In this document: positions 1 to 17,521 of the stretch, piece by piece
How positions within the stretch are numbered: the first letter of the stretch is position 1
Layout of the letters: every line of letters starts with the position of its first letter
Source: Pyrobaculum calidifontis JCM 11548
GTDB taxonomy: Archaea > Thermoproteota > Thermoprotei > Thermoproteales > Thermoproteaceae
Reading direction: 5' to 3'
Length of the DNA stretch: 32,000 nt
Assembly (NCBI RefSeq): GCF_000015805.1
Contig: NC_009073.1
Location: 1,380,001 to 1,412,000, forward strand
The notes under the pieces: model-generated
Databases searched by the model: none
What the model was told of the DNA's origin: nothing
What the model saw: only the letters and a program-made list of their open reading frames with translations
Translations under genes and position numbers: made by a program

Positions 1-1043
1 ACCCACCTCCCGCCTTTTATGTACTTCGCCACTCCCCGCACCACGGCGTATACGGCTGCGGCGAGGCCTAGGCCGTAGAGCAGAAGCGCGGCAAAGAGGG
101 CGAGGTAGTTCCCGGCAAGCGACGCCAGCGCCACCACTGTGGCAAACCCGGCGTAGGGGAGAATACAGGGAGTCCACACAGCGCCTAGAGAAAAGCCGAA
201 GAGGAAGTCGCCGGCAGAGCCAAGCCGCTTAAAGGCGAAAGTCTGCAACCTAGAGACAGCGGCGGCGTATTTGACGCTCAGCCTCTCCACGAGGAGGACA
301 GCCCCCAGCAGTAGCAGAGCCACCCCGCCCACCGCGAGAAAGACCTGCCTAGCATACGCAACTGCGCCTCCCACCGCCGCCACAGCCACGCCAACGGCGG
401 CGTAGGACAAGACCATCCCCAGAAGCACCTTGGGCAAACTCCGCCGCGCAAAATGTGTCACGGCGGCGACGCCTAGCACTGGGAGAACGCAGGGAGAAAA
501 CGCGCTGGCGACGCCTAGCACAAACGCAGACAGCAAAGCGGCATACGGGAAGGCGTCGCCGCCCTCTTGCACGCCCTTGGGAGAGAGAAATTCCACAAAC
601 ACACGCTTTAGGTCAACCCCAGGAGGCACGTCCGCCCCCGTCCAAAAGCCCAGTAGCCTAATCCTCCCGCCCTCCGCCACCCCTATTACCACCGTGGGCG
701 TGCCCGGGATTAAAAAAGTCCTCTCACCCCTAACCACGTAGTATTTCACAACCCCGTGATCCACATACGCCACCTGCCCATCCACCACTACGTCAATGCC
801 GCTTATACGCGCCCTAGATAAATCAAGGGTGTAGAGGCTGTACTTCGACATTAAGGCGGCGACTTCCCCATCTGAGAAAAGCGCCTCAAGCCTCTTACAC
901 TCCTCACACCCAGGCTGGTATATGTACAGCAGGAAGGTGCCGTTGACCTCGTAAGGCGACTCCACCTCTTGAAACACGAGAAGGCCCTTCTGCAGAGCTA
1001 AGGCCAAAGCGGCGAGAACTAAGACGAGCAGTACCTGCCTCAT
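1..1043 (-). CDS. ccdA: Thioredoxin-fold (CxxC) domain fused to a CcdA/DsbD-type thiol-disulfide membrane transporter. The 3' end runs off the window.
   Basis: Absent from the ORF track because there is no stop inside the window. My translation from the ATG at 1043-1041 gives MRQVLLVLVLAALALALQ (signal/TM). It continues ...LLYIYQPGCEECKRLEAL (Trx CxxC) ...FLIPGTPTVV (cis-Pro loop). A polytopic part follows with the two CcdA signature cysteines (SAFSPCVLPVLG and GAVWTPCILPYAG). There is an ATGA start/stop overlap with the upstream ORF at 1040-1043. Confidence 0.7.
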   Translation of the reverse strand, partial: MRQVLLVLVLAALALALQKGLLVFQEVESPYEVNGTFLLYIYQPGCEECKRLEALFSDGEVAALMSKYSLYTLDLSRARISGIDVVVDGQVAYVDHGVVKYYVVRGERTFLIPGTPTVVIGVAEGGRIRLLGFWTGADVPPGVDLKRVFVEFLSPKGVQEGGDAFPYAALLSAFVLGVASAFSPCVLPVLGVAAVTHFARRSLPKVLLGMVLSYAAVGVAVAAVGGAVAYARQVFLAVGGVALLLLGAVLLVERLSVKYAAAVSRLQTFAFKRLGSAGDFLFGFSLGAVWTPCILPYAGFATVVALASLAGNYLALFAALLLYGLGLAAAVYAVVRGVAKYIKGGRW

Positions 1044-1612
1044 AGCCTATCCAACAGCCCCGCCACTACTATCCCTATCGCAGTTGTAAAAACTGCGGCA
1101 AGCCACGCCGGGGCCCCCTCTACCACCATCGCCAACGGGGGCAGGGCCAAGACTGCGGTCATTGCAGTAGCTGCGGGCGGGGGCAAGCCGCCGTATACCG
1201 CGAAGAGCGCCGCCAACGCGGCCAGAGTAGACATAAGAAACGCCGCCGCGGCGGCGAGTGGGGCGAGGGAGAGGTCAATGAAGAGGGAGGAGAGGGCCGT
1301 GGAGGCCATGGACAAGGCGCTTGTGACAACGAGTTTTGAGACGTAGACCCCGCTGTGCCCCGCGTAGTAGACAAGGCCCTCCAACACGCCGCGGTCCCAG
1401 TCTCTAATGACGTAGAGATACGCCGAGAGCTGCGAGGCCAAAAACGCCACGAGAAAGACTGCGTATCTCCCAGCGTAAGACCCCACTACCCCAGCCGCCA
1501 GAGAGGCCACGAAGAGAAACACAAGCTCCTCCACTCTCCTAGCCGCCGCCTTGAAGTCGGCCTTAACTACCTCCAGCATACTGAACATCCTCAATCCTGA
1601 CCTCATGCCCAA
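1040..1612 (-). CDS. ccmB: CcmB-like haem exporter permease
   Basis: A 190-aa polytopic membrane protein directly downstream of, and overlapping, the ABC ATPase. The segment VIRDWDRGVLEGLVYYAG resembles the conserved CcmB loop (D/E-x-G-x-LE). The true start may be an internal Met (MFSML, about 1585), because the listed start overlaps ccmA by 50 nt. Confidence 0.5.
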   Translation of the reverse strand: MGMRSGLRMFSMLEVVKADFKAAARRVEELVFLFVASLAAGVVGSYAGRYAVFLVAFLASQLSAYLYVIRDWDRGVLEGLVYYAGHSGVYVSKLVVTSALSMASTALSSLFIDLSLAPLAAAAAFLMSTLAALAALFAVYGGLPPPAATAMTAVLALPPLAMVVEGAPAWLAAVFTTAIGIVVAGLLDRL

Positions 1613-2144
1613 TCCCCAGGGGGAATGGGGAGGTGAGGAGGGCGGCCCCCCTCTCCTTCAACAAGTCTAACAACTCGCCTCTCGCCTCCTCGTCGAGGCC
1701 CGTGGTAGGCTCGTCGATTACGAGGTTGGGGGGGTCGGGGAGGAGGGCTCTCACCACGTCTACCCGCCTCCTCCACCCAAAGCTAAGCGCCTTGACAGGC
1801 TTGTCCAACACCTTGCAGACGCCCAGGGGACAGCCCACAAGCCTCCCGCCGGACAGCTTGGCAAAAAGCTTCAAGTTCTCTCGGACAGTGAGCTCTGGGT
1901 AGAGCATGGGCGTGTGGAATACCACGCCTAAGACGCTGGCGGGCACCCTGGGCCTTCTCCCGTCGACCAGCACCTCCCCCCGAGAGGGCTCCAACACCCC
2001 AGCAATGATTTTAACCAGGGTAGTTTTGCCAGAGCCGTTGGGTCCCACCAATGTGACAACGCTGTTAACTCGCATGTTTACCCCACGGAGGACCCAAAAT
2101 CCTCCAAGCCTTTTCCACACGTCTCTAATCTCAATCATATACAC
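1563..2144 (-). CDS. ccmA: ABC transporter ATP-binding protein, CcmA-like
   Basis: Walker A GPNGSGKTT, degenerate signature LSFGWRRRV, Walker B LVIDEPTTGLD. It sits in ccm context. The listed start is GTG (2144); an ATG two codons in (2138) is an alternative. Confidence 0.7.
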   Translation of the reverse strand: MYMIEIRDVWKRLGGFWVLRGVNMRVNSVVTLVGPNGSGKTTLVKIIAGVLEPSRGEVLVDGRRPRVPASVLGVVFHTPMLYPELTVRENLKLFAKLSGGRLVGCPLGVCKVLDKPVKALSFGWRRRVDVVRALLPDPPNLVIDEPTTGLDEEARGELLDLLKERGAALLTSPFPLGIGHEVRIEDVQYAGGS

Positions 2145-2178
2145 GCCATATACAAAAATTCACACATTAAAGCCTTGC

Positions 2179-2204: not shown

Positions 2205-2579
2205 CTATGACTTAACTGGGGCATAGTAGGCAGAGTGGCAACCCTTCAAAATTGTGGTTATGTTCAAGGTCTTGGTGGCTGGGTTGTAGAACCCCTCTAC
2301 CACTACCTCGCCGCTGAATTGGAAAGAGGGACCCGCCAGCCTTACGACGGTGTCGTAGGGCACCACAGCCCTTATGGTAAAGCCGTCGCGGCCTCTGAGG
2401 ATTAGGTAGATGTAGTCCCCCTCTCTCCCGTACTCCACAAGTTGGCCGGACACTCTCACCTTGCCTCCTGGGAAGTTCTTCAAGTCGGAGACGTCCTTGG
2501 GAGTTCCAACAAAGAGCGAGGCTATGCCCGCGGCCAAGAAGACTGCCACAAGGGCCCCCGCCACTACCCACCTATTCAT
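2205..2579 (-). CDS. ccmE: CcmE haem chaperone, archaeal variant with C-terminal CxxxY instead of HxxxY
   Basis: 124 aa with an N-terminal TM (WVVAGALVAVFLAAGIASLF) and an OB-like body (VRVSGQLVEY...FTIRAVVPYD...GEVVVEGFY). The C-terminus is ILKGCHSAYYAP, which contains C-H-S-A-Y (CxxxY). ATGA overlap with ccmC. Confidence 0.75.
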   Translation of the reverse strand: MNRWVVAGALVAVFLAAGIASLFVGTPKDVSDLKNFPGGKVRVSGQLVEYGREGDYIYLILRGRDGFTIRAVVPYDTVVRLAGPSFQFSGEVVVEGFYNPATKTLNITTILKGCHSAYYAPVKS

Positions 2580-3535
2580 AGCCTCTCCCGGAGCCAGAGT
2601 ATAAAAGCCATTGTGGCGAAGTAAAGCGCGGCGTTTACATACGCGCTGAAGTGCCGCACCAGCTCCACCCCGCCGCCTGCCACAGCCACGAAGTTCTTGG
2701 GCAAAGTAGGCGTGCCGTTGAAAAAGGCGGGGCTTAACACTTGCCCAGGCGGCACGTTGAGCACCTGCCCGCTCTCTAACACAATAGACGTCTCAGTCAC
2801 ATTCACCACCCTCTGGGGTTGGTAGAGGAGCCAAGGGTAGAGGAGAGCCACTGCCACAACGAGGCCGGCTAAATACACGGCTGAGGTCCACCTCGCCGGC
2901 TTAACAAAGAGGAGGGTCAAGAAGATGGTCAAGATCAAGAGGATGCGCATGCCCATGTACTGCCCCAGGGGCCCCCCGAAGGTGGTGCCCGGCCTGGGGT
3001 GAAACGCCTGTGCCAAGACAGGCGCGAGGAGAGAGACAATTGCGAGGACAAAGCCCGCGATAACAAAAGACTGGGCAAGCTTTACGCTCCTCTCGGGGTC
3101 CTCGACCCCCCTCCTAATGGCTGGGTATAGGGAGTAAATCAGCGCGAGCACTAGGATAGACATCTGTCTGGGGTCTAGGGCGAGGGGCGTGCCCCAGCTC
3201 TCCGCCGCCCAGACGGTGCCGCTGACAAAGGCGTACCACCCCAGCGCCGCCACTGAGTAGGCCGAGAAGTCCATCCACTTGAGAGCCCGCTCTGAGAGAC
3301 CCCTCCAAGCCCCCCACACCGCCAAGACAAAGGACAGAGCGGCCATGACGTAGAGGACAACCGCGGGCGGCACGTGGACGTAGACGTTTAAATACGCCGT
3401 GGGAGCCCCCAGCTCAGCCACAATAAGCGGAAACGGCCCCCAATTCACCAAATAAACCGCGGTAGCCACGTCTACCACTATTAAAACCGCCAGGAGAATA
3501 CCCAAGGGAGACATGTGGACATAATACACGTCCAT
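2576..3535 (-). CDS. ccmC: CcmC-like haem-handling membrane protein with an extra C-terminal extracytoplasmic segment and a terminal TM
   Basis: Polytopic, with a Trp-rich loop WAAESWGTPLALDPRQ (a divergent WWD motif). The likely true start is the ATG at 3514 (MSPLGILL...). The ATG at 3535 lies inside a TATA-like TTAAATA box that sits about 23 nt upstream of 3514. Confidence 0.65.
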   Translation of the reverse strand: MDVYYVHMSPLGILLAVLIVVDVATAVYLVNWGPFPLIVAELGAPTAYLNVYVHVPPAVVLYVMAALSFVLAVWGAWRGLSERALKWMDFSAYSVAALGWYAFVSGTVWAAESWGTPLALDPRQMSILVLALIYSLYPAIRRGVEDPERSVKLAQSFVIAGFVLAIVSLLAPVLAQAFHPRPGTTFGGPLGQYMGMRILLILTIFLTLLFVKPARWTSAVYLAGLVVAVALLYPWLLYQPQRVVNVTETSIVLESGQVLNVPPGQVLSPAFFNGTPTLPKNFVAVAGGGVELVRHFSAYVNAALYFATMAFILWLRERL

Positions 3536-3546
3536 ATTTAAGTCTA

Positions 3547-3563
3547 TGTATACTAAGTGTACA
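3547..3563 (-). promoter_or_regulatory. Hexamer pair TGTATA-ctaag-TGTACA upstream of ccmC
   Basis: TGTATA is at 3547-3552 and TGTACA at 3558-3563. The TGTACA starts 44 nt from the ATG at 3514. The pair abuts the TATA-like TTAAATA and lies 6 nt after the stop of the upstream cytochrome gene. Confidence 0.5.
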
Positions 3564-3569
3564 CAAAGA

Positions 3570-4976
3570 CTAACGTTTATCCACGCGTCTATTTACCCAC
3601 AGAGCCGCCAACCCGCCAACAAGCAAGACCACGGCGATCAGCCCCACTGGGCTAGGCCCCGCAGACGATTTAGCCACGACCTCTGAATACGCAGAGGGCT
3701 CCACAGCCCACGTCTGAACTTTAAACTGGTAGCCAATGGCATGCGCATTAGACACCCTACTGGGGTCTATGGAGAGAAAGTGGCAATTGAAGCAGGAGAC
3801 CCAGACTCTACTAGGCCCAACGCCCAACGGCAGAGTAGAGACAAAGTCGTTTTTATAGGCGTCCCAAAGCCCCACCTCAATATTCCGCCCAGGCGTCTTA
3901 GCCGTGATATTACCCACCAGCGAGGCGACGCTCCCCGTGGCGTTGTACTGAGTATAAGCGCGGGCAAGTTTCACAATAGTGGGCGCCGTCTCTACCCCCG
4001 AGCCAGACCCCTCATACGTCCACAACCCCGCGAGCCACTGCCCCCCATACACATAGCCCACGTGAACCACCGAGTGACACCTACACCCCACACCCCAGTG
4101 CACACTAGTAGAAACCACAGACGCAATAGCCGAGTGACAAGAGCCACAGTACTTCCAAGCCTCGTCCCCACCATAGGTGTTGTGCGCCCAGACATTTTGC
4201 CTAACCGTGGGGTCATACACCGTCGACGGCTGGCCGTGACACGGCTGACAAGCATCAGGATGTTGCAAATACTGCGTAGGCGAAAGAGTCCTCTTCGTCG
4301 CATTAATGTAGCGGGCGACATCCCAAATGTTATACCCATGGAAGTGGCAGTTAAAACAGGAAAGCCAGCTCTCCTCCGCCACTGCCCCATAGGCACCGCC
4401 GAATTTGGCGGGCACAGAGGCTATGTCGCCCACCCACCAATCCCACAACACCACCACGGCCACATTAACTGTATACCCTCCACTGTACAACTGATTAACA
4501 AGCTGGCATACCTTGGGGGGACAGTTGCTGGGCGTCCGCGTACAGTTGCACCAAAGCTTCGCCTGTTTAAACACGAGAGGCGGGTCTACATAAGGCGGAG
4601 CGGCGACGGGAAGATAAGTCTCTACTAAAACCTCGCTAGGGTGTGTAGAACTGTGACGGTTGAGATTTACATGTATAACTGCGTGGCATGCACATTCACG
4701 CGCACGCGGCATAACAGGCACCCCAGCCACCCGCTTGCCGTTGCCGTCATGACATCCACAATACCTTCGGTCTTGGCGATGTCCGTAGGGCGGGGGCGAG
4801 AGGTAAAACGTGGCGCTGGATAATTTCGCGTGGGGGGCGCCGGCCACGTACTCCACATGACAGTTAAGACAGCCTCTATCTCGCTGTTCACTGTGGCAAC
4901 TGTCGCAGTTCCCCACTTGAACCGACACGGCGAGGGTAAACACGGCTAGAGATAAGACTAGGACGAGCTTATTCAT
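3570..4976 (-). CDS. Secreted multihaem c-type cytochrome with a C-terminal membrane anchor (6 CxxCH plus 3 CxCH motifs)
   Basis: Signal peptide MNKLVLVLSLAVFTLAVSV. CxxCH motifs: CDSCH, CLNCH, CFNCH, CQPCH, CGSCH, CFNCH. CxCH motifs: CGCH, CACHAVIHV, CRCHSVVHV. C-terminal TM plus basic tail: GLIAVVLLVGGLAALWVNRRVDKR. N-x-S/T sequons are present. Confidence 0.8.
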   Translation of the reverse strand: MNKLVLVLSLAVFTLAVSVQVGNCDSCHSEQRDRGCLNCHVEYVAGAPHAKLSSATFYLSPPPYGHRQDRRYCGCHDGNGKRVAGVPVMPRARECACHAVIHVNLNRHSSTHPSEVLVETYLPVAAPPYVDPPLVFKQAKLWCNCTRTPSNCPPKVCQLVNQLYSGGYTVNVAVVVLWDWWVGDIASVPAKFGGAYGAVAEESWLSCFNCHFHGYNIWDVARYINATKRTLSPTQYLQHPDACQPCHGQPSTVYDPTVRQNVWAHNTYGGDEAWKYCGSCHSAIASVVSTSVHWGVGCRCHSVVHVGYVYGGQWLAGLWTYEGSGSGVETAPTIVKLARAYTQYNATGSVASLVGNITAKTPGRNIEVGLWDAYKNDFVSTLPLGVGPSRVWVSCFNCHFLSIDPSRVSNAHAIGYQFKVQTWAVEPSAYSEVVAKSSAGPSPVGLIAVVLLVGGLAALWVNRRVDKR

Positions 4977-7548
4977 AGCGGGTTAAGTAGAACAGCAGTA
5001 TTACTGCCGCCAACGAGGAGAGCCATAGGAGGTTCACCAGCGGCACCGTCTTTACGCTTATGTGTATTTCGCTCTGCGTCGGCGTGTATTGGTGGACTAA
5101 CGTGGCGAGCTCTAGTAGGGCTGTCAAAAAGGTGGTGGCGAAGCTCTGGGGGTCGGCGTTGGAGAGGAGGTTTATGTTGTACCCCGCCGCGGCGAGGGCC
5201 AATAGCTTGAGGCTCTCCCGCGGGTTAAGCGTCTTACACACCTGCGATAGGTAGTAAATCATGGGCTCTGGATATGTGGCAAACTCCCCCTGGACGTATG
5301 GAGTGAAGACAGCTATGTAAACATCGTCGAGCCCGCGGGGCACAGTGACAACCGCCGATACTAGGCCGTGTATGCCAGACACCTCCCCGTTTATGGCGTA
5401 TCTAACCACGGCCTCCAGCCTCCTGCCATCTACCGCCAACACAGTCTTGGAGAAGGCCTCGGCGGGGACCGCCTTCGGGACGTCGGAGAAGGTGTGGGCA
5501 GCTCTCACGTCTGACAAGAGGTCGAGGTAGGGGGTTTGTAATAGGCCGTAGAGGGGGGTGCCCGGCGTCATAGTCATGTAGTACAAAGTCAAGTTCATGT
5601 CAAGCGGCATGGGCACAGCCCTCCTCACGCCCCCCACTTCCACCACGGCAGACATTGGGATTAGGGCGCCACCGCTGGACACTAAAGTCCCCGTGACGTT
5701 GACCACGGCGTCCCCCGCCTTAAACACAAGCGGCTTCTCCACTGTCATTGTCTGATTCACCGGGGAGTTGCCCCATATGTACAACATGAGGGCCAGCCCC
5801 CCAGCCCCGCCGTGTGCCACATACGCCCCCACAGACGCGTTTTCCACGAAGTAGACGTTGTCCCCCGCCTCAATGCGGAGGTCGCCCACATGCACAGGCT
5901 TTTTGACTAGCGCAAAGAGGTAGGACAAGGCGGGGTCTCCCTCGACGCGCCGCCTCCCCTCCTCTATAAAAGGCCTAGCCTGACTCACAAGGGAGCCCGC
6001 CGACAATAGGCCATACTGGGCGTATTGATACACGGAGTTTCCCCTATACACCGTGTAGATGTCGACCTTGTCGGCGGAGAGACCGAGTTGGTAGTCCTCC
6101 ACTCTTATGGAGACGCCGGCCACTTTAGCCTCTGCGCCTGGCTCCACGTAGAGGTCTAGGAAATACGCCCTGCTGTACGCGTGAGGCAGACTGTACACCG
6201 CGGCTACGAAGAAGAGGAGGAGGAAGAGGTGGAGTATCCTCAACACAGACGTCCTCCCCCTAGCCCTATACGCCGAGTATAAAATTACCCCGGCCCCCAT
6301 GGCCGCCCAGACCAAGGCGGCTCCCACCGCGGCGTTTGTAAGCGGGTGCGACTTCGGCGAGAAGGGGACCGCCCCCACATAGGCGGCCGCGGCCAAGGCG
6401 CCGCTGGCCACGGCCCCCACGGCGACGTAGAGGAGGAGCGTTTTGCCGCCCCTCTCTAGGTATATCAGCGGCGAGAACATGAGCGTTATCAACACCAGCA
6501 GATAGAGGGCGGGGTTGTAGAACCACATCCCGTCGTCCATCTGCGGCGGCGCCGTGTTTAAGCCAAAGGCCACCCCCAGCGAGGGGACTAGGAGAGAGCC
6601 GTAGAGAAAGACCCCCGCCGTGAATATGGAGAGGAAAGTCAACATCTTGCCCCAGTTTTCCACAGCCCACTTAGCCACGAGGAGGTGGCGGAGGGCCATA
6701 AGCAGAAAGGCCAGGGAGAGGGCTAGGAGGAGGTAGCCGCCTGCGCCAGGCGAGGCAAAGCCGTGGAGGGGGCTCATCCCCGTGCGAGTGACAAAGAGGG
6801 CTAGAAACACCGAGCCCGCCGCCAAGAGGAAAGAGGCCTTTTTCACGTCGCTAAGCGCCTTGGGGGCGTGGAGGGCGGCGGCAGCCACGACGAAGACCAT
6901 GAGCTGGGCAGTCTCCACGGGGTCCCACGCCCAGTACCCACCCCAGCCAAAAGTGACATAGCTCCAGTACCCACCTACCACAAGCCCCGCGAAGAGGAAG
7001 GCCAGCGCCGCATAGGCAAGACGCCTCAGTCCAACGGCCTCGACGTAGGCCAAGGCGAGAGACGTGGCAAAAACTCCCGCATACCCTAAAAAGACCAGCG
7101 GCGGGTGGATAGAGACCCAGAAGCTCTTAAGCAGTGGGTTTATGCCCCCGCCCACAGTGGCCTCCTGCAGAGTGTCAAACGGCCCGTAGAAGTATGCCGA
7201 CGCGCCTAAGAGGAGGAGCACCGCCGCCGCGGCCCTCGCCACCTTCAAAGGGGCGCCAGCCCTATGCACAAGGAAAATGAAAACCCCCAAGAAGAAAGAC
7301 AAGAGGAGGAGGCTAGACCCAGTCCCAGCCCACGACGCAGAAAGCCTCAGCCACCAGTCCGCCCCCACGTTAGTGTTCTTAGCCACCTCGAGGAGAGAGA
7401 AGTCCTGGGCCAAAAACGACGCGGCGTAGTAAAGCCAAGAGGCGGCCAACAACGCGGTGGCCGCCGCCAGCAAGCGGACTCTCCCAGTGACAACAAACGC
7501 CAGGTAGACAACCAGAGCTATTGCAAAGACGAAGCCAGTTGGATGCAT
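4969..7548 (-). CDS. ccmF: CcmF-like cytochrome c haem lyase with a large C-terminal extracytoplasmic domain and a terminal TM
   Basis: 859 aa. The N-terminal ~460 aa are polytopic and carry the canonical WWD motif WGGYWAWDPVET. About 350 aa of soluble-looking domain follow, then a final TM (LWLSSLAAVILLFYL). It overlaps the downstream cytochrome gene by 8 nt. Confidence 0.8.
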   Translation of the reverse strand: MHPTGFVFAIALVVYLAFVVTGRVRLLAAATALLAASWLYYAASFLAQDFSLLEVAKNTNVGADWWLRLSASWAGTGSSLLLLSFFLGVFIFLVHRAGAPLKVARAAAAVLLLLGASAYFYGPFDTLQEATVGGGINPLLKSFWVSIHPPLVFLGYAGVFATSLALAYVEAVGLRRLAYAALAFLFAGLVVGGYWSYVTFGWGGYWAWDPVETAQLMVFVVAAAALHAPKALSDVKKASFLLAAGSVFLALFVTRTGMSPLHGFASPGAGGYLLLALSLAFLLMALRHLLVAKWAVENWGKMLTFLSIFTAGVFLYGSLLVPSLGVAFGLNTAPPQMDDGMWFYNPALYLLVLITLMFSPLIYLERGGKTLLLYVAVGAVASGALAAAAYVGAVPFSPKSHPLTNAAVGAALVWAAMGAGVILYSAYRARGRTSVLRILHLFLLLFFVAAVYSLPHAYSRAYFLDLYVEPGAEAKVAGVSIRVEDYQLGLSADKVDIYTVYRGNSVYQYAQYGLLSAGSLVSQARPFIEEGRRRVEGDPALSYLFALVKKPVHVGDLRIEAGDNVYFVENASVGAYVAHGGAGGLALMLYIWGNSPVNQTMTVEKPLVFKAGDAVVNVTGTLVSSGGALIPMSAVVEVGGVRRAVPMPLDMNLTLYYMTMTPGTPLYGLLQTPYLDLLSDVRAAHTFSDVPKAVPAEAFSKTVLAVDGRRLEAVVRYAINGEVSGIHGLVSAVVTVPRGLDDVYIAVFTPYVQGEFATYPEPMIYYLSQVCKTLNPRESLKLLALAAAGYNINLLSNADPQSFATTFLTALLELATLVHQYTPTQSEIHISVKTVPLVNLLWLSSLAAVILLFYLTRYE

Positions 7549-7566
7549 ATGCGCCTCTACACAGAA

Positions 7567-8883: not shown

Positions 8884-8910
8884 GGGGAGAAAAAGGGAGG
8901 GGGTTTATTT

Positions 8911-10068
8911 TTACTGTGCCCTCCTCCTCAGCGCCAAGAAGGCGCCTCCAAGCAACGTGGCAGTGGCCAAGAGGGCGACTAGCGACAAGTTAGGCGCCAC
9001 GCCGCCGCCAGCCGCCTGAGCCGCCGGCATCACAATCTTGTGCGGGTCAGTGAGAGAGTTAAGCACATCGGCGGGTATGCCTATCTTCCACACGCCGCCC
9101 ACCTCCATCACCTTAGCCGTGCCAAGCTGACCCTGGTAGACGAAGTGGCAGTTGAAACACGCAGCAACGCCTGGGTTAACGGCCACTGGCAAGTAGTAGG
9201 GAGCTCTTGAATATGGCGCATATGGAGCTACCAATATGAAGTCGCCAGTGTGTATGTCAAATACGCCCATGACAATAGTCTCGCCATTAGGCGCCTCCTC
9301 AGTCAACGGATGCGTCCTGACACTGGGGTTCTTCAGCACGGCGCCAGATGCAGTACCCCACTCATAGCGGAATATACCAGCTTGCTCTAAAGCACTGAAG
9401 AAGTCTGTCTCAAGGAAGTCGGCAGCAGAGCTCTTTGCTTTTACTGTGCCGTTGGCATACTTATCGTAGCCTACAAGTAGCGCCTTTACCGTAACCTCGC
9501 CCTTGCTCTCTAGAAGTTGCATCAACGACGTCGGCGCATTACCACTGAATGTGTATGTGCCTTCTGGCGTACCTTTGAAACATATGTACACGTTCCGGAA
9601 GTCTAGAGTGGGCTTGGCGCCGAAATAGCCCGGCGTAGCGGTAGATAATCTGGGCACATAGAAGTATATACATGCAGTGTAGCCGTCTGTTGGATTGCCG
9701 TAGCCCACGTGTGCTACTGCGTGACACGCACATCCATACGAGTTCAGAAGACCGGAGTGCACATTACCGGGGCCGCTATTAATAGAGTTCCAAATAGCTA
9801 CGTGGCAGTTTATACACTTTTTCCATACGTCTGTACCCTTGAGTACTTGGTGGCTCCAGACACACTCCTGCTGGCTTGGGTCACAAGCGCCAGCGGCCGG
9901 CCCGCTAGTTAGTCCGGAGAGGGCTTGGCTGTTGGCCGTTCCTGTCGAGTTTGAGTGGCAGGAGATGCAGTTTGTTGGGTGGTTGTATGAATAGGGCGGG
10001 CCGTACGTTGCTGCTACGAATACTGCTAGTAGTAGTAGCGTTGTAATTAGCGCGGGGAATTTCTTCAT
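8911..10068 (-). CDS. Secreted multihaem c-type cytochrome with a C-terminal membrane anchor (3 CxxCH plus 1 CxCH)
   Basis: Signal peptide MKKFPALITTLLLLAVFVAA. CxxCH motifs: CISCH, CINCH, CFNCH. CxCH motif: CACHAVAHVGY. C-terminal anchor LVALLATATLLGGAFLALRRRAQ. It is a single-module paralog of 3570..4976, sharing the CxCHxVxHV and CFNCHF blocks. Confidence 0.8.
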   Translation of the reverse strand: MKKFPALITTLLLLAVFVAATYGPPYSYNHPTNCISCHSNSTGTANSQALSGLTSGPAAGACDPSQQECVWSHQVLKGTDVWKKCINCHVAIWNSINSGPGNVHSGLLNSYGCACHAVAHVGYGNPTDGYTACIYFYVPRLSTATPGYFGAKPTLDFRNVYICFKGTPEGTYTFSGNAPTSLMQLLESKGEVTVKALLVGYDKYANGTVKAKSSAADFLETDFFSALEQAGIFRYEWGTASGAVLKNPSVRTHPLTEEAPNGETIVMGVFDIHTGDFILVAPYAPYSRAPYYLPVAVNPGVAACFNCHFVYQGQLGTAKVMEVGGVWKIGIPADVLNSLTDPHKIVMPAAQAAGGGVAPNLSLVALLATATLLGGAFLALRRRAQ

Positions 10069-10101
10069 GTGAGATGAGAAATTTTTGGGTATTTAAACTT
10101 T

Positions 10102-10167
10102 TGTATTTGTCAAGTACTTTTTTTATGTTTTTTGTACACTCTGTATTTTGTGTGTACATTTTGTATT
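10102..10167 (-). promoter_or_regulatory. Hexamer cluster upstream of the trihaem cytochrome gene
   Basis: TGTATT (10102-10107)-n5-AGTACT (10113-10118), with the latter starting 45 nt from the ATG at 10068. Two further copies of TGTACA-n3-TGTATT lie at 10133-10147 and 10153-10167, a 20-bp period. A TATA-like TTTAAATA (plus tatttaaa, 10090-10097) is present. The distal copies lie in the last codons of ORF 10110..11918. Confidence 0.5.
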
Positions 10168-11918: not shown

Positions 11919-12607
11919 CTGGCGCAGTCTAGGAAGTCGGCTGGGCTAAAGCCCATGGCTCTGGGCCCGTGGCACCCTATGCATGGGACTCCCTTGCCTG
12001 CGCCTATTTGGCAGTCTGGCCCTATTGGGACATACCACCTGGACCACGGACTGTGGCACTCTAGGCATACCTCGTATTTGCCCATGTCTACTTGGGCCCA
12101 GGCGGAGTCGTGGAAGACCATGTGGGTGTTTAACACTTTGTTGTAGTCGTGGCAGGTCTGACATCTGGCGCTTGTGGTGGCGGAGTCGTGGGGGTTGTGG
12201 CAGAGGGTGCAGCTCTTTAGCCTGTCTGCCAGCTGGGCGTGCGCCTCGTGGATGTTTAACTGGGAGAAGGACTGGGCTGTGTGGCAGGTGAGACACTGGT
12301 CGAACATGGGCTGGGCGTATCGCGCCGCTATTTGTTGGGGAGTTGGGTTTTCCACTGCTTGTACGTAGATCCAGCGGAGTAGGTCTATGGAGTGGCAGGT
12401 GGCGCAGGAGGTTCCCCCATGCGGCGTATTTTTAATGTTGGCGATGAAGGGGAGCATGTTGTGGCAGGTGGCGCACACGGCCGATGACCCGGGGTCGTAC
12501 CTCAAGTACAGCCAAAAGCCGACTCCGGCGACCACCGCCGCGGCTAACAACAGCAGTGCCACAGTCCTGGGAGTAAGCGCCTTTCTCAGCCGCTGTAGCC
12601 TACCCAT
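11903..12607 (-). CDS. Membrane-anchored octahaem c-type cytochrome, NapC/NirT/NrfH-like
   Basis: N-terminal TM (TVALLLLAAAVVAGVGFWLYL) and eight CxxCH motifs: CATCH, CATCH, CLTCH, CTLCH, CQTCH, CLECH, CIGCH, CARCH. It overlaps both neighbouring genes (8 nt and 16 nt). Confidence 0.8.
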   Translation of the reverse strand: MGRLQRLRKALTPRTVALLLLAAAVVAGVGFWLYLRYDPGSSAVCATCHNMLPFIANIKNTPHGGTSCATCHSIDLLRWIYVQAVENPTPQQIAARYAQPMFDQCLTCHTAQSFSQLNIHEAHAQLADRLKSCTLCHNPHDSATTSARCQTCHDYNKVLNTHMVFHDSAWAQVDMGKYEVCLECHSPWSRWYVPIGPDCQIGAGKGVPCIGCHGPRAMGFSPADFLDCARCHGR

Positions 12608-14222
12608 GGCCCGCCAGCCTCCTTATTAAAATTGCAAGTATGGCAATGAACGGAAAAATCGCCGCCGTCAACACGTCTCGCGTCTCTTTGGGGGCTAGCT
12701 GGGGGTTTTGTGGTAGAGTTAGTACATACGCGTACCCCGACTCTACTTTGAAGGCGGCGAGGTTGTCGCCATAGAGGTAGAAGACGAGGTAGACGTAGTC
12801 GCCGGGGGGCATTGGCAAGAGGTATCTAAGTCTCACTGTGCCGTTTATGTACCCGGCGTAGCGGCCAGAGTTTGTGGAATTGAAAAGCGTCGTGGGCGGC
12901 AACGGGATGAGAACCCCGCTTTTGTTCATTAGTAGGATTGGCCATAGCGCCGTCTGTCTTAGGGGGTCTCTAGGCCTCGCTGTCACGTTCATTTCGACGT
13001 AGGCCGCCACGGCGTTGGGGAGGCGGGGTATTTCCAGTCTCATGAGGGGCTGCGGCTGTGTTAGCTGTATGGAGTAGTAGTGGGGCACCACTAGGGGTGT
13101 CTTTTTCTCCAGTGTAATGGGCTGGGCGGGTACTTGGGGCAGTTGTACCACGCCTTTTTTAACTACGCCGGGGCCTGTGTATACGACTGTGACATTTCCG
13201 CCTGCCGTGGCCTCCAGCGGCAAGAGGCGTATTGTCAACAGACTGGGCTTGGCCACCTCTGCAAAGAGCGTGGCTGAGAGCGCGTGTTCTAGGGCGAGCC
13301 CCTCTGGCGACACTGTGTCGTTTAATAACACGTCGTATTGTACTCCCAGCGCCGTCTGTCTAATGCCCACTACTACTCCGGCCAGCGTCCTGTATTCCAC
13401 CGTGGGCGGCTGTATTGATATAGGCCCGGTGTAGTTCATGGGGTATATGGCGTAGCGGTTTTGAGGCCCGGCTATCTCCACTTTGAAGTATGTGACGTTG
13501 CCCCACGCCTTTGACGGCTCTAGGAGTATCTCTCCGCCGCCGCTTAAGTCCTTCTCCACGGTGACGTTGCCCACGTTCAGCGTTACTTTTACCTGTATGT
13601 ACTTGGCTAAGTAGTAGTAATAGGGCTGGTACGCTATTCTCAGGGCCTTAGACCTATTGAAGCAGTACCATGAGACTATTTTTAGAAGGCCTATGTCTCC
13701 CCCGTATTTCCCGGCTAGGTCTATTTGAAGCCAGTTGCAGAGGTCTACCACCCGCGTTTTGACGTTGAAGGCTAGGGCGCGCCACTCGGGGGTAAAGACT
13801 AGGCTTTGCCCAGCCCTCTTGGCCGCCTCTGCTATGTCTAGGTAGTACACGTCTTTTACCACGCCGCCGCGGGTCACCACTATGAAAGTGGCATTTAAGA
13901 ACTCCACCGCTGTTTCCTCGCCTGCGCACGCGTCCATGAGGGTTTGGCTGAGGGACAACGTGGCAGTGTTCTGCGGGTTTTGGAAAACGTAGTGCATCGT
14001 CTTCTCCCCCTTCGCTCCGCAGTTGAAGCGTAGGTGTAAGACGGCTATTGTGTAGACGTCTTCGCCTAGGTGTTGAGATAGGGCGGTGTTGTTTACCTTG
14101 ACTGCAACTACTACGTCTGTTACTATGGTGAGCGTGGTCTTGTTTACTACTTCTACCTCGATGCCTGGCGCCACTGTTATGGCTATGGCGAAAGGGGCAA
14201 TAAGTAGAACGAGGTATTTCAT
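12600..14222 (-). CDS. Secreted, heavily N-glycosylation-sequon-rich protein of unknown function with a C-terminal anchor
   Basis: The start is reassigned to the ATG at 14222 (MKYLVLLIAPFAIAITVAPG, a signal peptide). The ORF-track extension to 14351 runs through the TATA and hexamer promoter region. At least 13 N-x-S/T sequons are present. C-terminal TM AAIFPFIAILAILIRRL. No recognisable catalytic or cofactor motif. Confidence 0.6.
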   Translation of the reverse strand: MKYLVLLIAPFAIAITVAPGIEVEVVNKTTLTIVTDVVVAVKVNNTALSQHLGEDVYTIAVLHLRFNCGAKGEKTMHYVFQNPQNTATLSLSQTLMDACAGEETAVEFLNATFIVVTRGGVVKDVYYLDIAEAAKRAGQSLVFTPEWRALAFNVKTRVVDLCNWLQIDLAGKYGGDIGLLKIVSWYCFNRSKALRIAYQPYYYYLAKYIQVKVTLNVGNVTVEKDLSGGGEILLEPSKAWGNVTYFKVEIAGPQNRYAIYPMNYTGPISIQPPTVEYRTLAGVVVGIRQTALGVQYDVLLNDTVSPEGLALEHALSATLFAEVAKPSLLTIRLLPLEATAGGNVTVVYTGPGVVKKGVVQLPQVPAQPITLEKKTPLVVPHYYSIQLTQPQPLMRLEIPRLPNAVAAYVEMNVTARPRDPLRQTALWPILLMNKSGVLIPLPPTTLFNSTNSGRYAGYINGTVRLRYLLPMPPGDYVYLVFYLYGDNLAAFKVESGYAYVLTLPQNPQLAPKETRDVLTAAIFPFIAILAILIRRLAGHG

Positions 14223-14254
14223 GTGTCTGAATTTTGTAAAATTATTTAAGCACA

Positions 14255-14282
14255 TGTATTCAAGTTGTACACTTGTTATAAT
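14255..14282 (-). promoter_or_regulatory. Phased hexamer array TGTATT-n5-TGTACA-n5-TATAAT
   Basis: TGTATT 14255-14260, TGTACA 14266-14271, TATAAT 14277-14282, in exact 11-bp register. The central hexamer starts 44 nt from the ATG at 14222. A TATA-like TTAAATAA (plus ttatttaa, 14243-14250) is present. The array overlaps the stop codon of the upstream nrfD-like gene. Confidence 0.6.
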
Positions 14283-15253
14283 GGTTCTGGAATTCCAGCG
14301 TATACCACTAGCGTTCTTAGGGCTAGTGCGCCGAAGAGGCCGGCGACGCATCCTGCGTAAGTTAACTTGGGGCTGTGCCTAATTTTTGACAGCGCGGCTG
14401 TGGCGAGGGGGGTTACGATTCCGAGGCCGATTACGAAGACCCAGAAGATCGGCGCTAGCTCGCCCCACAGCACTGCGTGTGCGCTTTCTCTTGCCGCGAA
14501 TGAGGCGGAGTTTAGGGCGTTGTAGAGGAAGAGGAATATCACGGCGACTTCGCCTATTTCAAATAAGACGCCGTATTTCTCAGTGGTGTGTACTAGGTGT
14601 TCTCTGTCTAAGTGGTACATTCTTATGAGGGCTAAGGCCCCCGCCGTGGCGCTGAATATCCATATGGTGGGTATGCCGGGGATTCCCCAGAGCGTCGTGT
14701 TCCAAAACGGCACTGCCTTTGCTTCAGATATTAAAAAGCCGCTGTACAACGTCACCAATACTCCGATGGCCATTGCTAGGTAGTAGTACCACCTCTGTGC
14801 CAGTAGCCACGTGGCGATTTTGTCTAAGAGGGCTAGTAGTGGCGCGAGGGGCTTTGCCAAAGGCTGTGGGAGCGCGGCTTGGATTCGTCTTACTAGGTAG
14901 GGGAGTGCCCATATGGCCACTACGAGAAGCGCCAGTATTAACATGACTATGCCGAGTGCCATCCAGGAAAATCGCAACTCCCCCCTTAGGAATGGGAAGA
15001 GGAAGTTGTATCTAAGCTCTAGGAAGGAGTTCAACATGGCGAACATCATGACTGTGGGTGGTCTTGAGAGATCTCCCATTACGAAGAGGAGGGCAAGTAT
15101 GATCGAGGCCAGTAGCACGTAGGTCAGCGTCTCGTACCGTAGCTCCTCTCCCCTTAGCTTGAAAATTGACATGGCCACCATCCCCATGCCGACTAGCCCG
15201 GCGAAGAATAGGAAGGGGCCTATTAAGAAGGCGTCCCAATACTCCTGAAACAT
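14276..15253 (-). CDS. NrfD/PsrC-family polytopic quinone-interacting membrane subunit
   Basis: 325 aa with about 8-9 TM helices. It is a paralog of 17544..18416 (both begin ...EIW/EYW..LIGPFL... and end ...LRxLVxxAGxxEP). It is the last gene of an operon with two FeS proteins and a cytochrome. Confidence 0.7.
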   Translation of the reverse strand: MFQEYWDAFLIGPFLFFAGLVGMGMVAMSIFKLRGEELRYETLTYVLLASIILALLFVMGDLSRPPTVMMFAMLNSFLELRYNFLFPFLRGELRFSWMALGIVMLILALLVVAIWALPYLVRRIQAALPQPLAKPLAPLLALLDKIATWLLAQRWYYYLAMAIGVLVTLYSGFLISEAKAVPFWNTTLWGIPGIPTIWIFSATAGALALIRMYHLDREHLVHTTEKYGVLFEIGEVAVIFLFLYNALNSASFAARESAHAVLWGELAPIFWVFVIGLGIVTPLATAALSKIRHSPKLTYAGCVAGLFGALALRTLVVYAGIPEPL

Positions 15254-15954
15254 TACTCCTCCACGATGAAGAACTTGGGCTTAGTGTTTTTCTCTGGCAT
15301 TAGTACGTAGACCCGCTTGGCGGCGGCCAGCCTCTTTGAGATTGAGGAGTTGGGGTCGTTTATGTCGCCGAAGTCTCTTGCCCCCACTGGGCAGAAGGCG
15401 ACGCAGGCGGGGAGCCCCCCACTCTTTACCCGTTGGATGCACCAAGTGCACTTGGAGGGCGTGCCTTCTTTATTTATCCACCTGGCGTCGTAGGGGCACG
15501 AAGATATGCAGTACTTACAGCCGACGCAGAGGTTGTAGTCCACTAGCACAATGCCCCCGTCTTTATCGACGTAGGAGGCGCCAGTGGGGCAGTTGCGGAC
15601 GCAAGGCGCATCTTCGCAGTGTTGACACTGTATAAATATAAAGCGCGGCAAATCTCCGTGCTCTGTTTCAACTATTTTTGTATTTGCCTGAGGCCACCCC
15701 CACGACGCGTTTGGAGACTTGTCTCTTCCATAGTTTACCGCGTTGCAGGCAGCCACACAGGCTCCACAGAAGATGCACTTGGAAACGCTCCAGAGGAAGG
15801 CGTACTTTTTGCCTTGGCCGTCTTTGACTTGGCCCACTTCTACTGGCTGTAGTTTTAGCCCCTTGGCGTTGCTTTTCGACGGCAACAAGGATAGTGCAGC
15901 TAGAGCCACTGGCAATGTGAGAAATTGGCGCCTATTCATGGCCCCCCTCGCCAC
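15253..15954 (-). CDS. Tat-exported 4x[4Fe-4S] ferredoxin-type subunit (NrfC/PsrB-like)
   Basis: Twin-arginine signal MNRRQFLTLPVALAALSL. Four Cys clusters: CIFCGACVAAC, CQHCEDAPCVRNCP, CVGCKYCISSCP, CTWC...CVAFCP. Confidence 0.8.
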   Translation of the reverse strand: MARGAMNRRQFLTLPVALAALSLLPSKSNAKGLKLQPVEVGQVKDGQGKKYAFLWSVSKCIFCGACVAACNAVNYGRDKSPNASWGWPQANTKIVETEHGDLPRFIFIQCQHCEDAPCVRNCPTGASYVDKDGGIVLVDYNLCVGCKYCISSCPYDARWINKEGTPSKCTWCIQRVKSGGLPACVAFCPVGARDFGDINDPNSSISKRLAAAKRVYVLMPEKNTKPKFFIVEE

Positions 15955-16726
15955 TCTTCTCCTCGATGCGCGACTGGCGCCAGCCCACTAAGGCCATGAT
16001 CGCCACGGCGGCTGCGGCCGCCTCTATGCCTAAGTAGCTGATTGGCGGGAGAGAGCCTCTTTCTAGTGGGAATGAGAGAATTCTCTTAGTCTCCTCGGGG
16101 TCTTTCTTTCTTGCGACGTCGGTTAAAAAGGCGGAGAAGGCCTTCTCGTCGCTATACACGTACACCCAATGTGTGAGCTCTATGCCGTAGGTTTTCCGCC
16201 CCTTTTTCTCCTCTTTTCTTGCCTGGGCGTATATCTCCGATATGGGGCCGAATTTTAACGCGCCTGTTGGACAAGCCTCTACGCAAGCGGGCGGCTTGCC
16301 CTCCGCCGCTCTATCCACGCAGAGGTCGCATTTTCTATACCGTCTATCTGCTCCTTGTCTAGGTACTCCGTATGGGCAAACAGCGGCGCATCTCCCACAG
16401 CCTATGCACTTGTCTGTCTGAATAACCACGGCGCCGTACTCTGTGACAATGTGGGCGTCCACTGGGCATACCAAGGCACACACCGCCGAGTAGCAGTGGA
16501 AACATCTGTAAAGCATTGGGACGCTGGCATATTGCCTAAGTGAGAGCCAGTTAGTCGCAGTGAGAGAGGAAGGGGAAAAAGTTTTTGACCGTAGCTCATA
16601 TGCTGTGCCATTTCTAATTTTACACGCCTCTACACACTTTCCACAGCCAGTGCATTTATCCACGTCGAATAATATGCCATACTCCTTCCGCGGATTAGGC
16701 CACGACACTGGAGTCAGTTTGACCAC
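15932..16726 (-). CDS. 4x[4Fe-4S] ferredoxin-type protein with a C-terminal TM tail anchor (HybA/FdnH-like topology)
   Basis: GTG start. Cys clusters: CTGCGKCVEAC, CFHCYSAVCALVCP, CIGCGRCAAVCP, CDLC...CVEACP. No signal peptide. C-terminal hydrophobic helix IEAAAAAVAIMALVGW followed by a charged tail. Confidence 0.75.
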   Translation of the reverse strand: MVKLTPVSWPNPRKEYGILFDVDKCTGCGKCVEACKIRNGTAYELRSKTFSPSSLTATNWLSLRQYASVPMLYRCFHCYSAVCALVCPVDAHIVTEYGAVVIQTDKCIGCGRCAAVCPYGVPRQGADRRYRKCDLCVDRAAEGKPPACVEACPTGALKFGPISEIYAQARKEEKKGRKTYGIELTHWVYVYSDEKAFSAFLTDVARKKDPEETKRILSFPLERGSLPPISYLGIEAAAAAVAIMALVGWRQSRIEEKSGEGGHE

Positions 16727-16760
16727 GTAAAAGCTTCTTTTATGTTTATTTAAACCATTC

Positions 16761-16795
16761 TATTACAAATGTACACTTGGTATACATTGTGTACA
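16761..16795 (-). promoter_or_regulatory. Phased hexamer array TATTACA-n2-TGTACA-cttgg-TATACA-ttg-TGTACA
   Basis: TGTACA 16770-16775 starts 44 nt from the GTG at 16726. TATACA is at 16781-16786 and TGTACA at 16790-16795. A TATA-like TTTAAATA (plus tatttaaa, 16747-16754) is present. It has the same 26-nt architecture as 21486-21511. Confidence 0.6.
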
Positions 16796-17488
16796 CTACG
16801 AGTAGTGGCACTGTGTACATGGCCTACCTGTTATATCAGGCGGCGTAAGCTGTAGATGACAGGTAAGACAAGTCTTGCCCTCTACCACGCCTTGTAGACA
16901 GGGAGCTGCCGGGGGTACATAGGCGTGTGAATTTGGCGAGTGGCATTTGCCGCACATCTCTACGCTGAATGTGAAGGGGCTATTGTGCATTTGCATATGC
17001 TTTTCCACTGTGGGGAGGTATGGGTGGCAATTGGCGCAGGACTGGGGGAGGAAGTTTTCGATGTGGATGGCGTGGCACACGCTACATGTATTAGTGGTAT
17101 TAACTACTGCAAGGTGGGCGGTGTGTATGTACAACTTCTGTGGATTTGTGTGACATTCTAGACAGGGCTCATATAGGCCTTTGTGTGGATAATACTTATT
17201 GAATACGTCGAGGGAATTTGGGCGAGATGTCAAGTATGTCCAAACCATGTCTGCCATGTCGCCTATCGTAATTTTGTGGCATACGAGACAGCTGTATTTT
17301 GAGTGCGGCTTGCTTATATTGCCTATGTAGAATGACATTGTATGACATATTCCACATTGTACATTTACTGTTGGAGTATATACAAAAAATGCGTATAGGA
17401 CCGGTATCGAAAAAATAAGTATCAATATGACAATTACGATGGCCTTTATTACTGACGCCTTTTTAATAGGCATTCTAAATTTCAACAC
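16796..17488 (-). CDS. Membrane-anchored octahaem c-type cytochrome, NapC/NirT/NrfH-like (paralog of 11903..12607)
   Basis: N-terminal TM (AIVIVILILIFSIPVLYAFFV) and eight CxxCH motifs: CGICH, CLVCH, CLECH, CSVCH, CANCH, CGKCH, CLTCH, CTQCH. The motifs are collinear with the other octahaem protein. Start is GTG at 17488 or ATG at 17473. The gene is visibly AT-richer than its neighbours. Confidence 0.8.
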   Translation of the reverse strand: MLKFRMPIKKASVIKAIVIVILILIFSIPVLYAFFVYTPTVNVQCGICHTMSFYIGNISKPHSKYSCLVCHKITIGDMADMVWTYLTSRPNSLDVFNKYYPHKGLYEPCLECHTNPQKLYIHTAHLAVVNTTNTCSVCHAIHIENFLPQSCANCHPYLPTVEKHMQMHNSPFTFSVEMCGKCHSPNSHAYVPPAAPCLQGVVEGKTCLTCHLQLTPPDITGRPCTQCHYS

Positions 17489-17521
17489 AATGCTTCACAA
17501 TCAGAAAAATATATGCCTTGT

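Follow-up and report, generated by a model that had tools for sequence, protein, structure and literature searches.

Long-range transfer of electrons outside the cell is currently attributed to cytochrome nanowires. Only two archaeal nanowires have a solved structure, one of them being the filament of the hyperthermophilic archaeon Pyrobaculum calidifontis. In published descriptions of that cryo-electron microscopy structure (8E5F; primary reference Baquero et al. 2023, Cell 186:2853), the filament is extracellular and micron-scale, was obtained by shearing cells, and is an insulated helical homopolymer of a tetrahaem c-type cytochrome with a continuous haem chain. Here, we describe a stretch of 32,000 nucleotides from P. 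calidifontis JCM 11548 (contig NC_009073.1, positions 1,380,001 to 1,412,000; hereafter the window, with positions counted from its first nucleotide), the first 17,488 nucleotides of which carry an island of genes for multihaem c-type cytochromes. This 17-kb island is the locus of the published extracellular cytochrome filament, together with its haem attachment machinery and the probable electron-feeding proteins. The minus strand of this part of the window is gene-dense, and the genes and promoter modules of the island and of the two neighbouring molybdoenzyme operons all lie on the minus strand.

Among described systems, the nanowires OmcE and OmcS of Geobacter sulfurreducens are comparable in that they are polymerized multihaem c-type cytochromes with a continuous chain of bis-His haems, encoded in clusters with other multihaem cytochromes. 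However, they have no sequence or fold relationship to the P. calidifontis filament subunit, Pcal_1490. The Geobacter clusters contain beta-barrel and lipoprotein components of the outer membrane and no ccm (cytochrome c maturation) genes, whereas P. calidifontis has no outer membrane, and its locus combines anchored cytochromes, a Lon-like protease, an orphan membrane protein and a whole Ccm system. According to a 2026 review, three questions about nanowires await an answer: their charging from the membrane; their secretion, anchoring and termination; and their use. The anatomy of the locus supplies named, conserved candidates for each step (the quinol module, two octahaem cytochromes, Pcal_1487, the Lon-like protease, the orphan protein, the CxCH sites and the operator), all of them open to genetic and biochemical tests in a hyperthermophile that can be grown in culture.

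The filament subunit and its double-domain paralogue

The open reading frame (ORF) at 8911-10068, annotated as Pcal_1490 of P. calidifontis JCM 11548 (UniProt A3MW92), is identical to chain A of PDB entry 8E5F at 385 of 385 residues (E = 7e-268). Pcal_1490 is the protein that polymerizes into the 8E5F tetrahaem filament, PcECF/PcECN, and the identity of one of the four island cytochromes with a filament subunit supports the original prediction, made from the sequence of the island, of an archaeal outward electron-transfer pathway. An exit of electrons from the cell at this locus is thus how its central gene has already been interpreted in print. The central protein was already known, having been solved and published in 2023 from the same organism, and in that respect the island is a rediscovery. 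Beyond the subunit itself, the present analysis contributes a description of the genes around it, the details of which (a paralogue with a mis-annotated start, the CxCH sites, the Lon dyad, the orphan protein, the accessory quinol module and the operator) may themselves already have been published.

A six-frame count of the whole window returns 25 CxxCH haem-binding motifs, exactly the number of canonical sites that had been predicted. All are on the minus strand and confined to four ORFs, with eight each in the octahaem cytochromes oct1 (16796-17488) and oct2 (11903-12607), six in Pcal_1487 (3570-4976) and three in Pcal_1490; shuffled sequence averages 1.7 motifs and never exceeds 6. The predicted outward orientation of the cytochromes is likewise supported, with Sec or twin-arginine translocation (Tat) signals and anchors placing all of the redox proteins outside the membrane. 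The labels "3-haem" and "6-haem" given to the two smaller sets of motifs are correct as counts of CxxCH and too low as haem totals, PcECF being tetrahaem and Pcal_1487 having 8-9 sites. The first of these proteins does carry the C-terminal anchor ascribed to it, but is not merely an anchored cytochrome, being the polymerizing subunit of a nanowire.

Pcal_1490 has a signal peptide, three CxxCH motifs, a CxCH motif (C113-A-C115-H116) and a C-terminal PNL-TM-RRR element, in which a transmembrane (TM) segment is followed by arginines. Because the structure contains four haems and the sequence only three CxxCH motifs, we deduce from the sequence and the published stoichiometry, rather than from the coordinates, that the fourth haem is attached at C113/C115/H116. 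Aligning 13 family members reveals one further Cys...Cys-His element and no other, Y-G-C113-A-C115-H116-A-V-x-H-V-G-Y, which is nearly invariant. Of the five CxCH motifs in the six frames of the window, four lie inside the two filament-family ORFs, and three CxCH of these ORFs share a C-x-C-H-x-V-x-H-V context. An alternative fourth site, C62/C69/H73, was rejected, because neither half of Pcal_1487 conserves these cysteines, while the CxCH is conserved. A search of the accessible literature on haem attachment at CxCH found no discussion of it. The family alignment also shows that P359-N-L, the TM helix that follows it and the terminal RRR are conserved at the C-terminus, and since a micron-long filament cannot arise from subunits embedded in the membrane, removal of this anchor is implied.

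The second member of the filament family, Pcal_1487, is a 468-residue tandem double filament-type (ECF-like) cytochrome with a predicted signal peptide and a C-terminal TM anchor. Its six CxxCH and three CxCH motifs, the latter conserved in the family, account for the 8-9 haem sites given above. In profile-profile comparison (hhalign), residues 238-465 align with the whole of PcECF at 99.7% probability, while the N-terminal half matches PcECF at 99.0% and its own C-terminal half at 99.2%. The public annotation of Pcal_1487 gives 380 residues; orthologues have 466-514, which supports the 468-residue form with its signal peptide. More speculatively, Pcal_1487 is a candidate for the membrane-anchored base, nucleator or adaptor of the filament.

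Gene content and conservation of the locus

A scan of genome contigs yielded two related loci; a P. ferrireducens homologue was not located by exact look-up. All 16 genes are collinear in P. oguniense TE7 (L002) and in a metagenome-assembled genome (MAG) from NCBI (L005), where HemA lies downstream. A Pyrobaculum MAG (L001), whose contig starts at the ferredoxin gene FeS1, is collinear from FeS1 to CcmE over the 18-kb stretch compared. A metagenome contig (L006) keeps oct1, lacks the two ferredoxin (iron-sulfur, FeS) genes and NrfD, and has a divergent molybdenum (Mo)/FeS/NrfD operon upstream. The locus of a Thermoproteus MAG (L003/L004) has the core only, ending in HemA, with no oct1/FeS/FeS/NrfD, in the order 583-like, oct2, Lon-like, CcmF, filament, 438-like and Pcal_1487-like in frame, CcmC-E-A-B, Trx-CcdA, HemA (the numbers being lengths of otherwise unnamed proteins). 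Judged by gene content, the conserved core consists of the filament gene, Pcal_1487, oct2, the Lon-like, sequon-rich and 438-residue proteins and the Ccm set, and the quinol module is accessory. The quinol-oxidizing module that had been predicted is present, as NrfD/FeS/FeS, but only as an accessory, being absent from two of the six related loci.

The haem attachment genes resemble the CcmABCEF system of Methanosarcina acetivorans (PMC9084895), with CcmA, CcmC, CcmF and a CxxxY CcmE-like protein and without CcmD, CcmH or CcmI. They differ from it in that CcmF is a single protein of 859 residues with a large extra soluble domain, encoded beside the orphan 438-residue protein, that CcmB and CcmE are too divergent for family models, and that the substrates probably include CxCH sites. 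The predicted "complete" System I stands for the domains of CcmA (1563-2144; ABC ATPase, PF00005 ABC_tran, E = 3e-22; 80-86% identical in L002 and L003), CcmC (2576-3535; CcmC-like haem exporter with a C-terminal extension, PF01578, E = 8e-10) and CcmF (4969-7548; CcmF-type haem lyase, PF01578, E = 2e-18), the last with 12 predicted TM helices, a soluble domain of ~380 residues, a terminal TM helix and the WWD-type motif WGGYWAWDP. It lacks family support for the other two components. The putative CcmB (1040-1612), assigned by position and topology as the permease partner of CcmA, overlaps ccmA, has six predicted TM helices with no match in Pfam or NCBIfam, and is conserved in L002 and L003. 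The putative archaeal-type CcmE (2205-2579), with an N-terminal TM anchor, has no match in Pfam, NCBIfam or solved structures and is assigned by position, topology and its C-terminal motif C117-HSA-Y121; the CxxxY motif is universal in archaeal CcmE (PMC9084895). No CcmH or CcmI domain was found by Pfam or NCBIfam in any ORF of the island, and archaea are expected to lack both (PMC9084895).

The set is completed by a fusion of a thioredoxin fold with a CcdA (DsbD-TM) domain (1-1043), the 3′ end of which is cut by the left edge of the window. This Trx-CcdA protein, identified from its translation and a weak NCBIfam match to DsbD, has a signal/TM segment, a CEEC thioredoxin-like motif and two TM-embedded cysteines (SPC/TPC), and is the probable thiol-reduction arm of cytochrome c maturation, with collinear orthologues in L002, L003, L005 and L006. 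HemA (glutamyl-tRNA reductase) directly follows Trx-CcdA in L003 (17416-18603) and L005 (20327-21107), and it probably also lies just past the left edge of the window.

The orphan polytopic membrane protein of 438 residues (7567-8883) is always found beside the filament gene. It has no match in Pfam or NCBIfam, and its family has only nine representatives among 1.84 billion proteins in an exhaustive profile search. In its AlphaFold2 model, the predicted local distance difference test (pLDDT) reaches 77-87 solely for residues 281-420, a C-terminal beta-domain. The top and sole significant Foldseek match of the model is CcmF (6ZMQ; E = 2.7e-5), with a TM-score of 0.28 and a poorly modelled TM region; a PDB profile search, hhalign against the CcmF of the window and the exhaustive profile search did not confirm the likeness. 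M. acetivorans has two proteins in place of one CcmF, the N-terminal one catalytic and the C-terminal one accessory (PMC9084895), which makes a CcmF-C-terminal-like role plausible for the 438-residue protein. From the model, it is possibly such a lyase partner or, alternatively, an assembly factor of the filament. In the Thermoproteus MAG, homologues of the 438-residue protein and Pcal_1487 occupy one reading frame of 863 residues with no stop between them (L003 11233-13824, plus strand); this may be a natural fusion, and an internal signal peptide beginning MFKK could mark a separate start. In P. calidifontis, a T5 tract (CCCTTTTTCT) lies in the 27-bp gap (8884-8910) after the stop codon of the filament gene, and could be a partial archaeal terminator ahead of the operator-less 438-residue gene.

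In Geobacter, the OmcZ precursor is matured by the subtilisin-like protease OzpA into its polymerizing form. The P. calidifontis locus is similar in concept, encoding an exported Lon-protease-like (S16) domain protein of 602 residues (10110-11918), a candidate extracytoplasmic serine protease, near the nanowire subunit. It is unlike OzpA in that the candidate would be a Lon-type Ser-Lys dyad enzyme and not a subtilisin, and in that its role there is proposed from comparison. The N-terminal domain matches the proteolytic domains of archaeal LonB (1xhk, E = 6e-6; 1z0b), and four orthologues share both putative catalytic residues, the Ser (G-T/P-S-L-S) and the Lys (G-G/N-x-x-E-K). The protein also has a Sec signal peptide, 11 sequons, a long helical region after the Lon-like domain and a probable C-terminal anchor. 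With this signal peptide and no AAA+ module in Pfam, it is, to judge from its domains, not Lon proper, and appears as a stand-alone exported S16-like domain. With its Ser-Lys dyad, it is the best candidate for removing the C-terminal anchor of Pcal_1490.

Upstream of oct2, a sequon-rich secreted protein (583 residues as listed), C-terminally anchored by its topology, is encoded at 12600-14222, with the listed ORF running to 14351. It has 15 N-x-S/T sequons and TM segments, is conserved in all six loci, and has no match in Pfam or NCBIfam.

The quinol:cytochrome c modules with which the oct1/FeS/FeS/NrfD unit can be compared are those of Nrf, the Geobacter Cbc-type complexes, Desulfovibrio Qrc and alternative complex III. 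The unit resembles NrfCD/PsrBC-based modules in its NrfD subunit, its PsrB/NrfC-type subunit with four [4Fe-4S] clusters and its outward multihaem cytochrome, and differs in having a second, FdnH-like, tail-anchored ferredoxin, an N-anchored octahaem cytochrome and no molybdopterin-like subunit. The NrfD/PsrC-type integral membrane subunit (14276-15253; PF03916, E = 6e-21), predicted to interact with quinol, has 7-8 TM helices and no homologue among solved structures. FeS2 (15253-15954), a PsrB/NrfC-type four-cluster ferredoxin with a Tat signal (RRQFL; Fer4_11, 3e-24), has as its closest solved relative 2vpw_B, the PsrB of Thermus polysulfide reductase (5e-44). FeS1 (15932-16726), an FdnH-type four-cluster ferredoxin with a C-terminal TM helix, matches 1kqf_B (Escherichia coli FdnH; 1e-28) over residues 11-240, the TM region included. 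Each ferredoxin has 16 Cys and a Fer4_11 domain, and both give weak matches to ActB of alternative complex III among solved structures. No signal peptide is predicted for FeS1 itself, which is probably co-exported and tail-anchored. Pfam finds no molybdopterin domain in the oct1/FeS/FeS/NrfD unit, which is therefore not a Psr-type reductase. NrfD, FeS1 and FeS2 form a PsrBC-like quinol-interacting module in which the second ferredoxin and oct1 replace the molybdopterin catalytic subunit.

The two octahaem cytochromes, both with an N-terminal TM anchor, are paralogues of ~30% identity. Each has eight CxxCH motifs, all of them invariant across nine members of the octahaem family, and a c7/c3-type multihaem signature (Cytochrome_C7, 4e-12 for oct2); oct1 matches the GSU1996-type structure 3ov0 at 2e-5. 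Membership of the NapC/NirT family was considered and rejected because matches are below the cut-off, oct2 reaching 15.5 bits against 24.1 for PF03264 (E = 0.014). Weak PF03264 matches occur in six of the nine family members (best 2e-5), and the likeness is limited to the TM helix and the first two haems.

A shared operator and the neighbouring molybdoenzyme operons

A module of ~40 nucleotides lies upstream of eight transcription units, those of the island plus that of the adjacent Mo operon, with a ninth copy ahead of a second Mo operon. At its center is TGTAYA-N5-TGTACA, which has 18 strand-wise matches in the window at no more than one mismatch versus 0.19 expected. All but one of these lie at respiratory promoters, those of ccmA, ccmC, ccmF, the filament gene, the 583-residue gene, FeS1 and the two Mo operons (Mo1 and Mo2), and a weaker copy precedes oct1. 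The copies are found at 2188-2204, 3547-3563, 7591-7607, 10142-10158, 14255-14271, 16770-16795, 17509-17547, 21486-21502 and 29889-29905. As a promoter-operator module, the ccmA copy (TGTATATTAAGTGTACA and a TATA-like box) spans 2166-2204; the ccmF copy, within the 3′ end of the 438-residue gene, spans 7569-7607 and is conserved in L001, L002, L003 and L005. The filament-gene promoter (10081-10161) has two TGTACA-type sites and a TTTAAATA box 22 nucleotides before the ATG, and its module is conserved in L001, L002, L005 and L006. The module shared by the 583-residue gene, oct2 and the S16-like gene (14244-14282) and that of FeS/FeS/NrfD (16748-16795) are both conserved in L001 and L002, and the oct1 copy (17509-17547) is 64-65% identical to the reference copies. 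Taken over all orthologous promoters, the operator is conserved in L001, L002, L003, L005 and L006.

At most promoters, the operator core is 5-16 nucleotides upstream of a TATA-like box, with a greater distance at the filament gene and Mo2, and the box stands ~20-28 nucleotides before the start codon, as expected for leaderless Pyrobaculum transcripts. This geometry indicates that several listed ORF starts are too long. The CcmC start is probably M8, at 3514, as the promoter module at 3534-3564 overlaps the first ATG. The position of its promoter module moves the start of the 583-residue protein to M44 at 14222 (MKYLVLL), which probably gives it its signal peptide. The catalytic subunit of Mo1 (listed at 18973-21543) probably begins at M35, at 21441, with the Tat signal MEISRRDF, upstream of which lies the operator at 21486-21502.

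The operator is absent from the housekeeping genes of the window, at 21.5-25 kb and 30-32 kb, and on this ground we rejected the idea that it is a generic promoter element. Its distribution suggests that TGTAYA-N5-TGTACA is the putative binding site of a regulator coupling the nanowire genes to two Psr/Phs-type operons. A literature search on the TGTACA motif in Pyrobaculum found nothing relevant.

The first of these operons, Mo1 (17544-21441), encodes a Tat-exported molybdopterin catalytic subunit, an FeS protein and NrfD (Molybdopterin, Molydop_binding, Fer4_11 and NrfD domains), and its best NCBIfam match is PhsA of thiosulfate reductase, at 359 bits, below the cut-off. The prediction that no terminal reductase accompanies the cytochromes thus holds within 1-17488, but not beyond it, as this Psr/Phs-like molybdopterin oxidoreductase operon begins 55 bp past the right boundary on the same strand. 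Mo2 (25116-29805) is, by its domains, a second Tat-exported Psr/Phs-like Mo/FeS/NrfD operon, with its operator at 29889-29905 upstream. The Mo1-type NrfD gene of P. oguniense is separated from oct1 by two small genes unrelated to them, one of which is on the opposite strand (L002 633-2540), an arrangement in which the Mo operon and the island are neighbouring but separate units.

Immediately to the right of Mo1 lie genes for a HEPN-domain protein and an MNT nucleotidyltransferase (21340-22570, plus strand), a probable toxin-antitoxin pair. A PaREP1 gene is found at 24651-25145, and similar NTP_transf_2 and PaREP1 genes flank the Thermoproteus locus.

Electron path and alternative readings

From the topology and order of these genes, an outward path can be proposed. 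Electrons would enter from membrane quinol at the NrfD/PsrC-type subunit and pass outward through Tat-exported FeS2 and tail-anchored FeS1 to membrane-anchored oct1, and then by way of oct2 and Pcal_1487, as membrane-proximal base or adaptor, to the Pcal_1490 polymer and an external acceptor. The streamlined archaeal System I (CcmABCEF and Trx-CcdA, with no CcmH) would attach ~30 haems, those at CxCH sites included, and the 438-residue membrane protein might assist either haem attachment or filament assembly. The exported Lon-like Ser-Lys protease would cut the PNL-TM-RRR anchor, allowing the subunit to leave the membrane and polymerize. The whole would form one regulon, with TGTAYA-N5-TGTACA ahead of the transcription units of the island and of two Psr/Phs-type molybdoenzyme operons. 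Its most specific form is a four-part kit, in which Pcal_1487 is the base or nucleator connecting the polymer to the anchored octahaem cytochromes, the anchor is clipped by a Lon-type enzyme, the CxCH sites are natural haem attachment sites with a spacer of one residue that require the unusual CcmF and/or the 438-residue protein, and one factor acting at TGTAYA-N5-TGTACA switches the kit together with the two molybdoenzymes. We put this version forward tentatively, and think it doubtful that all four parts will hold together; our confidence in the specific roles of Pcal_1487, the Lon-like protease and the 438-residue protein is far below that in the overall reading, which we hold with moderate confidence.

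Several points weigh against the outward path as drawn. Experiments cover only the filament; its partners, the carrier order and the direction in which electrons move are read from topology and synteny. The Thermoproteus locus and L006 lack the quinol module, which is thus not an obligatory point of electron entry; in loci of this kind, oct2, with its weakly NapC/NirT-like N-terminus, or another complex must take over that step. Cleavage of the anchor by the Lon-like protein is argued from sequence, and the Lon_C match of that protein scores 20.9 bits, below the Pfam cut-off of 21.1. The CcmF-like fold suggested for the 438-residue protein comes from a single Foldseek match to a half-confident model, with no support from sequence. 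The AlphaFold2 model of Pcal_1487, built from a nine-sequence alignment, is unusable (mean pLDDT 37.8), and with no usable structure its role as filament base is speculative. P. islandicum reduces Fe(III) oxides although it has no c-type cytochromes, and the reduction is indirect in P. aerophilum and P. arsenaticum. Of 7 Pyrobaculum species, only 4-5 have multihaem cytochromes, and the iron reducers P. oguniense and strain 1860 are among them. Fe(III) reduction without multihaem cytochromes means that the island is not required for iron respiration in the genus, and that comparing its presence or absence with that phenotype would give no clean answer; a link of the island to Fe(III) is not established.

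The same proteins could serve as an inward or bidirectional conduit, bringing electrons from reduced minerals, sulfur species or neighbouring cells to the NrfD module, which would act as a cytochrome:quinone reductase feeding the nitrate or O2 respiratory chains of P. calidifontis, a facultative aerobe. NrfD/PsrBC-type modules do run either way, depending on the complex, and nothing in the sequence allows the direction to be read. The filaments were observed in static yeast extract/tryptone/thiosulfate cultures with no added Fe(III), as described in a companion paper from the same laboratory (assuming the same preparation), and the 2026 review leaves the physiological roles of PcECN and AvECN undecided. 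However, an operator common to two Psr/Phs-type reductase operons is a better fit to an acceptor-side, reductive regulon, and the known insulated nanowires OmcS and OmcE are discussed as outward conduits, so that we regard inward flow as unlikely. We give somewhat less weight again to internal wiring, in which the cytochromes would be pseudo-periplasmic carriers for known enzymes with soluble substrates, either the adjacent thiosulfate/polysulfide-type molybdoenzymes or denitrification enzymes encoded elsewhere, and the filament a side product or storage form. That one Mo/FeS/NrfD operon stands 55 bp upstream on the same strand, with a second 8 kb away under the same operator, speaks for such wiring, as do the Mo operons that also adjoin the island in P. 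oguniense and L006 and the thiosulfate in the growth medium. Nevertheless, no cytochrome is needed by either Mo operon, as each encodes an FeS and an NrfD subunit, L003 and L005 have no Mo operon beside the island, and every locus retains the filament protein along with the core.

The least likely reading takes the filament as mainly non-respiratory, contributing to a matrix as a structural or adhesive element, buffering redox changes (a "capacitor") or detoxifying oxidants at the surface, with the ccm genes as a general maturation locus. P. calidifontis does make several other surface filaments that are involved in biofilms, and the ccm set of the island may be the only one in the genome, with HemA following it in L003 and L005. 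A structural fibre would nonetheless be costly at ~30 haem sites, with a quinol-linked module and respiratory co-regulation besides, and the geometry of the haem chain is that of electron-conducting nanowires. We retain the outward path, with moderate confidence, as the preferred account of the island.

The base composition of the window is uneven. G+C is 0.50-0.53 at 13000-18000, the region of the oct1/FeS/FeS/NrfD module, versus 0.56-0.61 elsewhere, which fits separate acquisition of the quinol module and its patchy distribution among related loci. There is also a very strong positive AT skew on the plus strand at 6000-9000, up to +0.42, arising from the T-rich codons of the highly hydrophobic CcmF and 438-residue proteins encoded on the minus strand.

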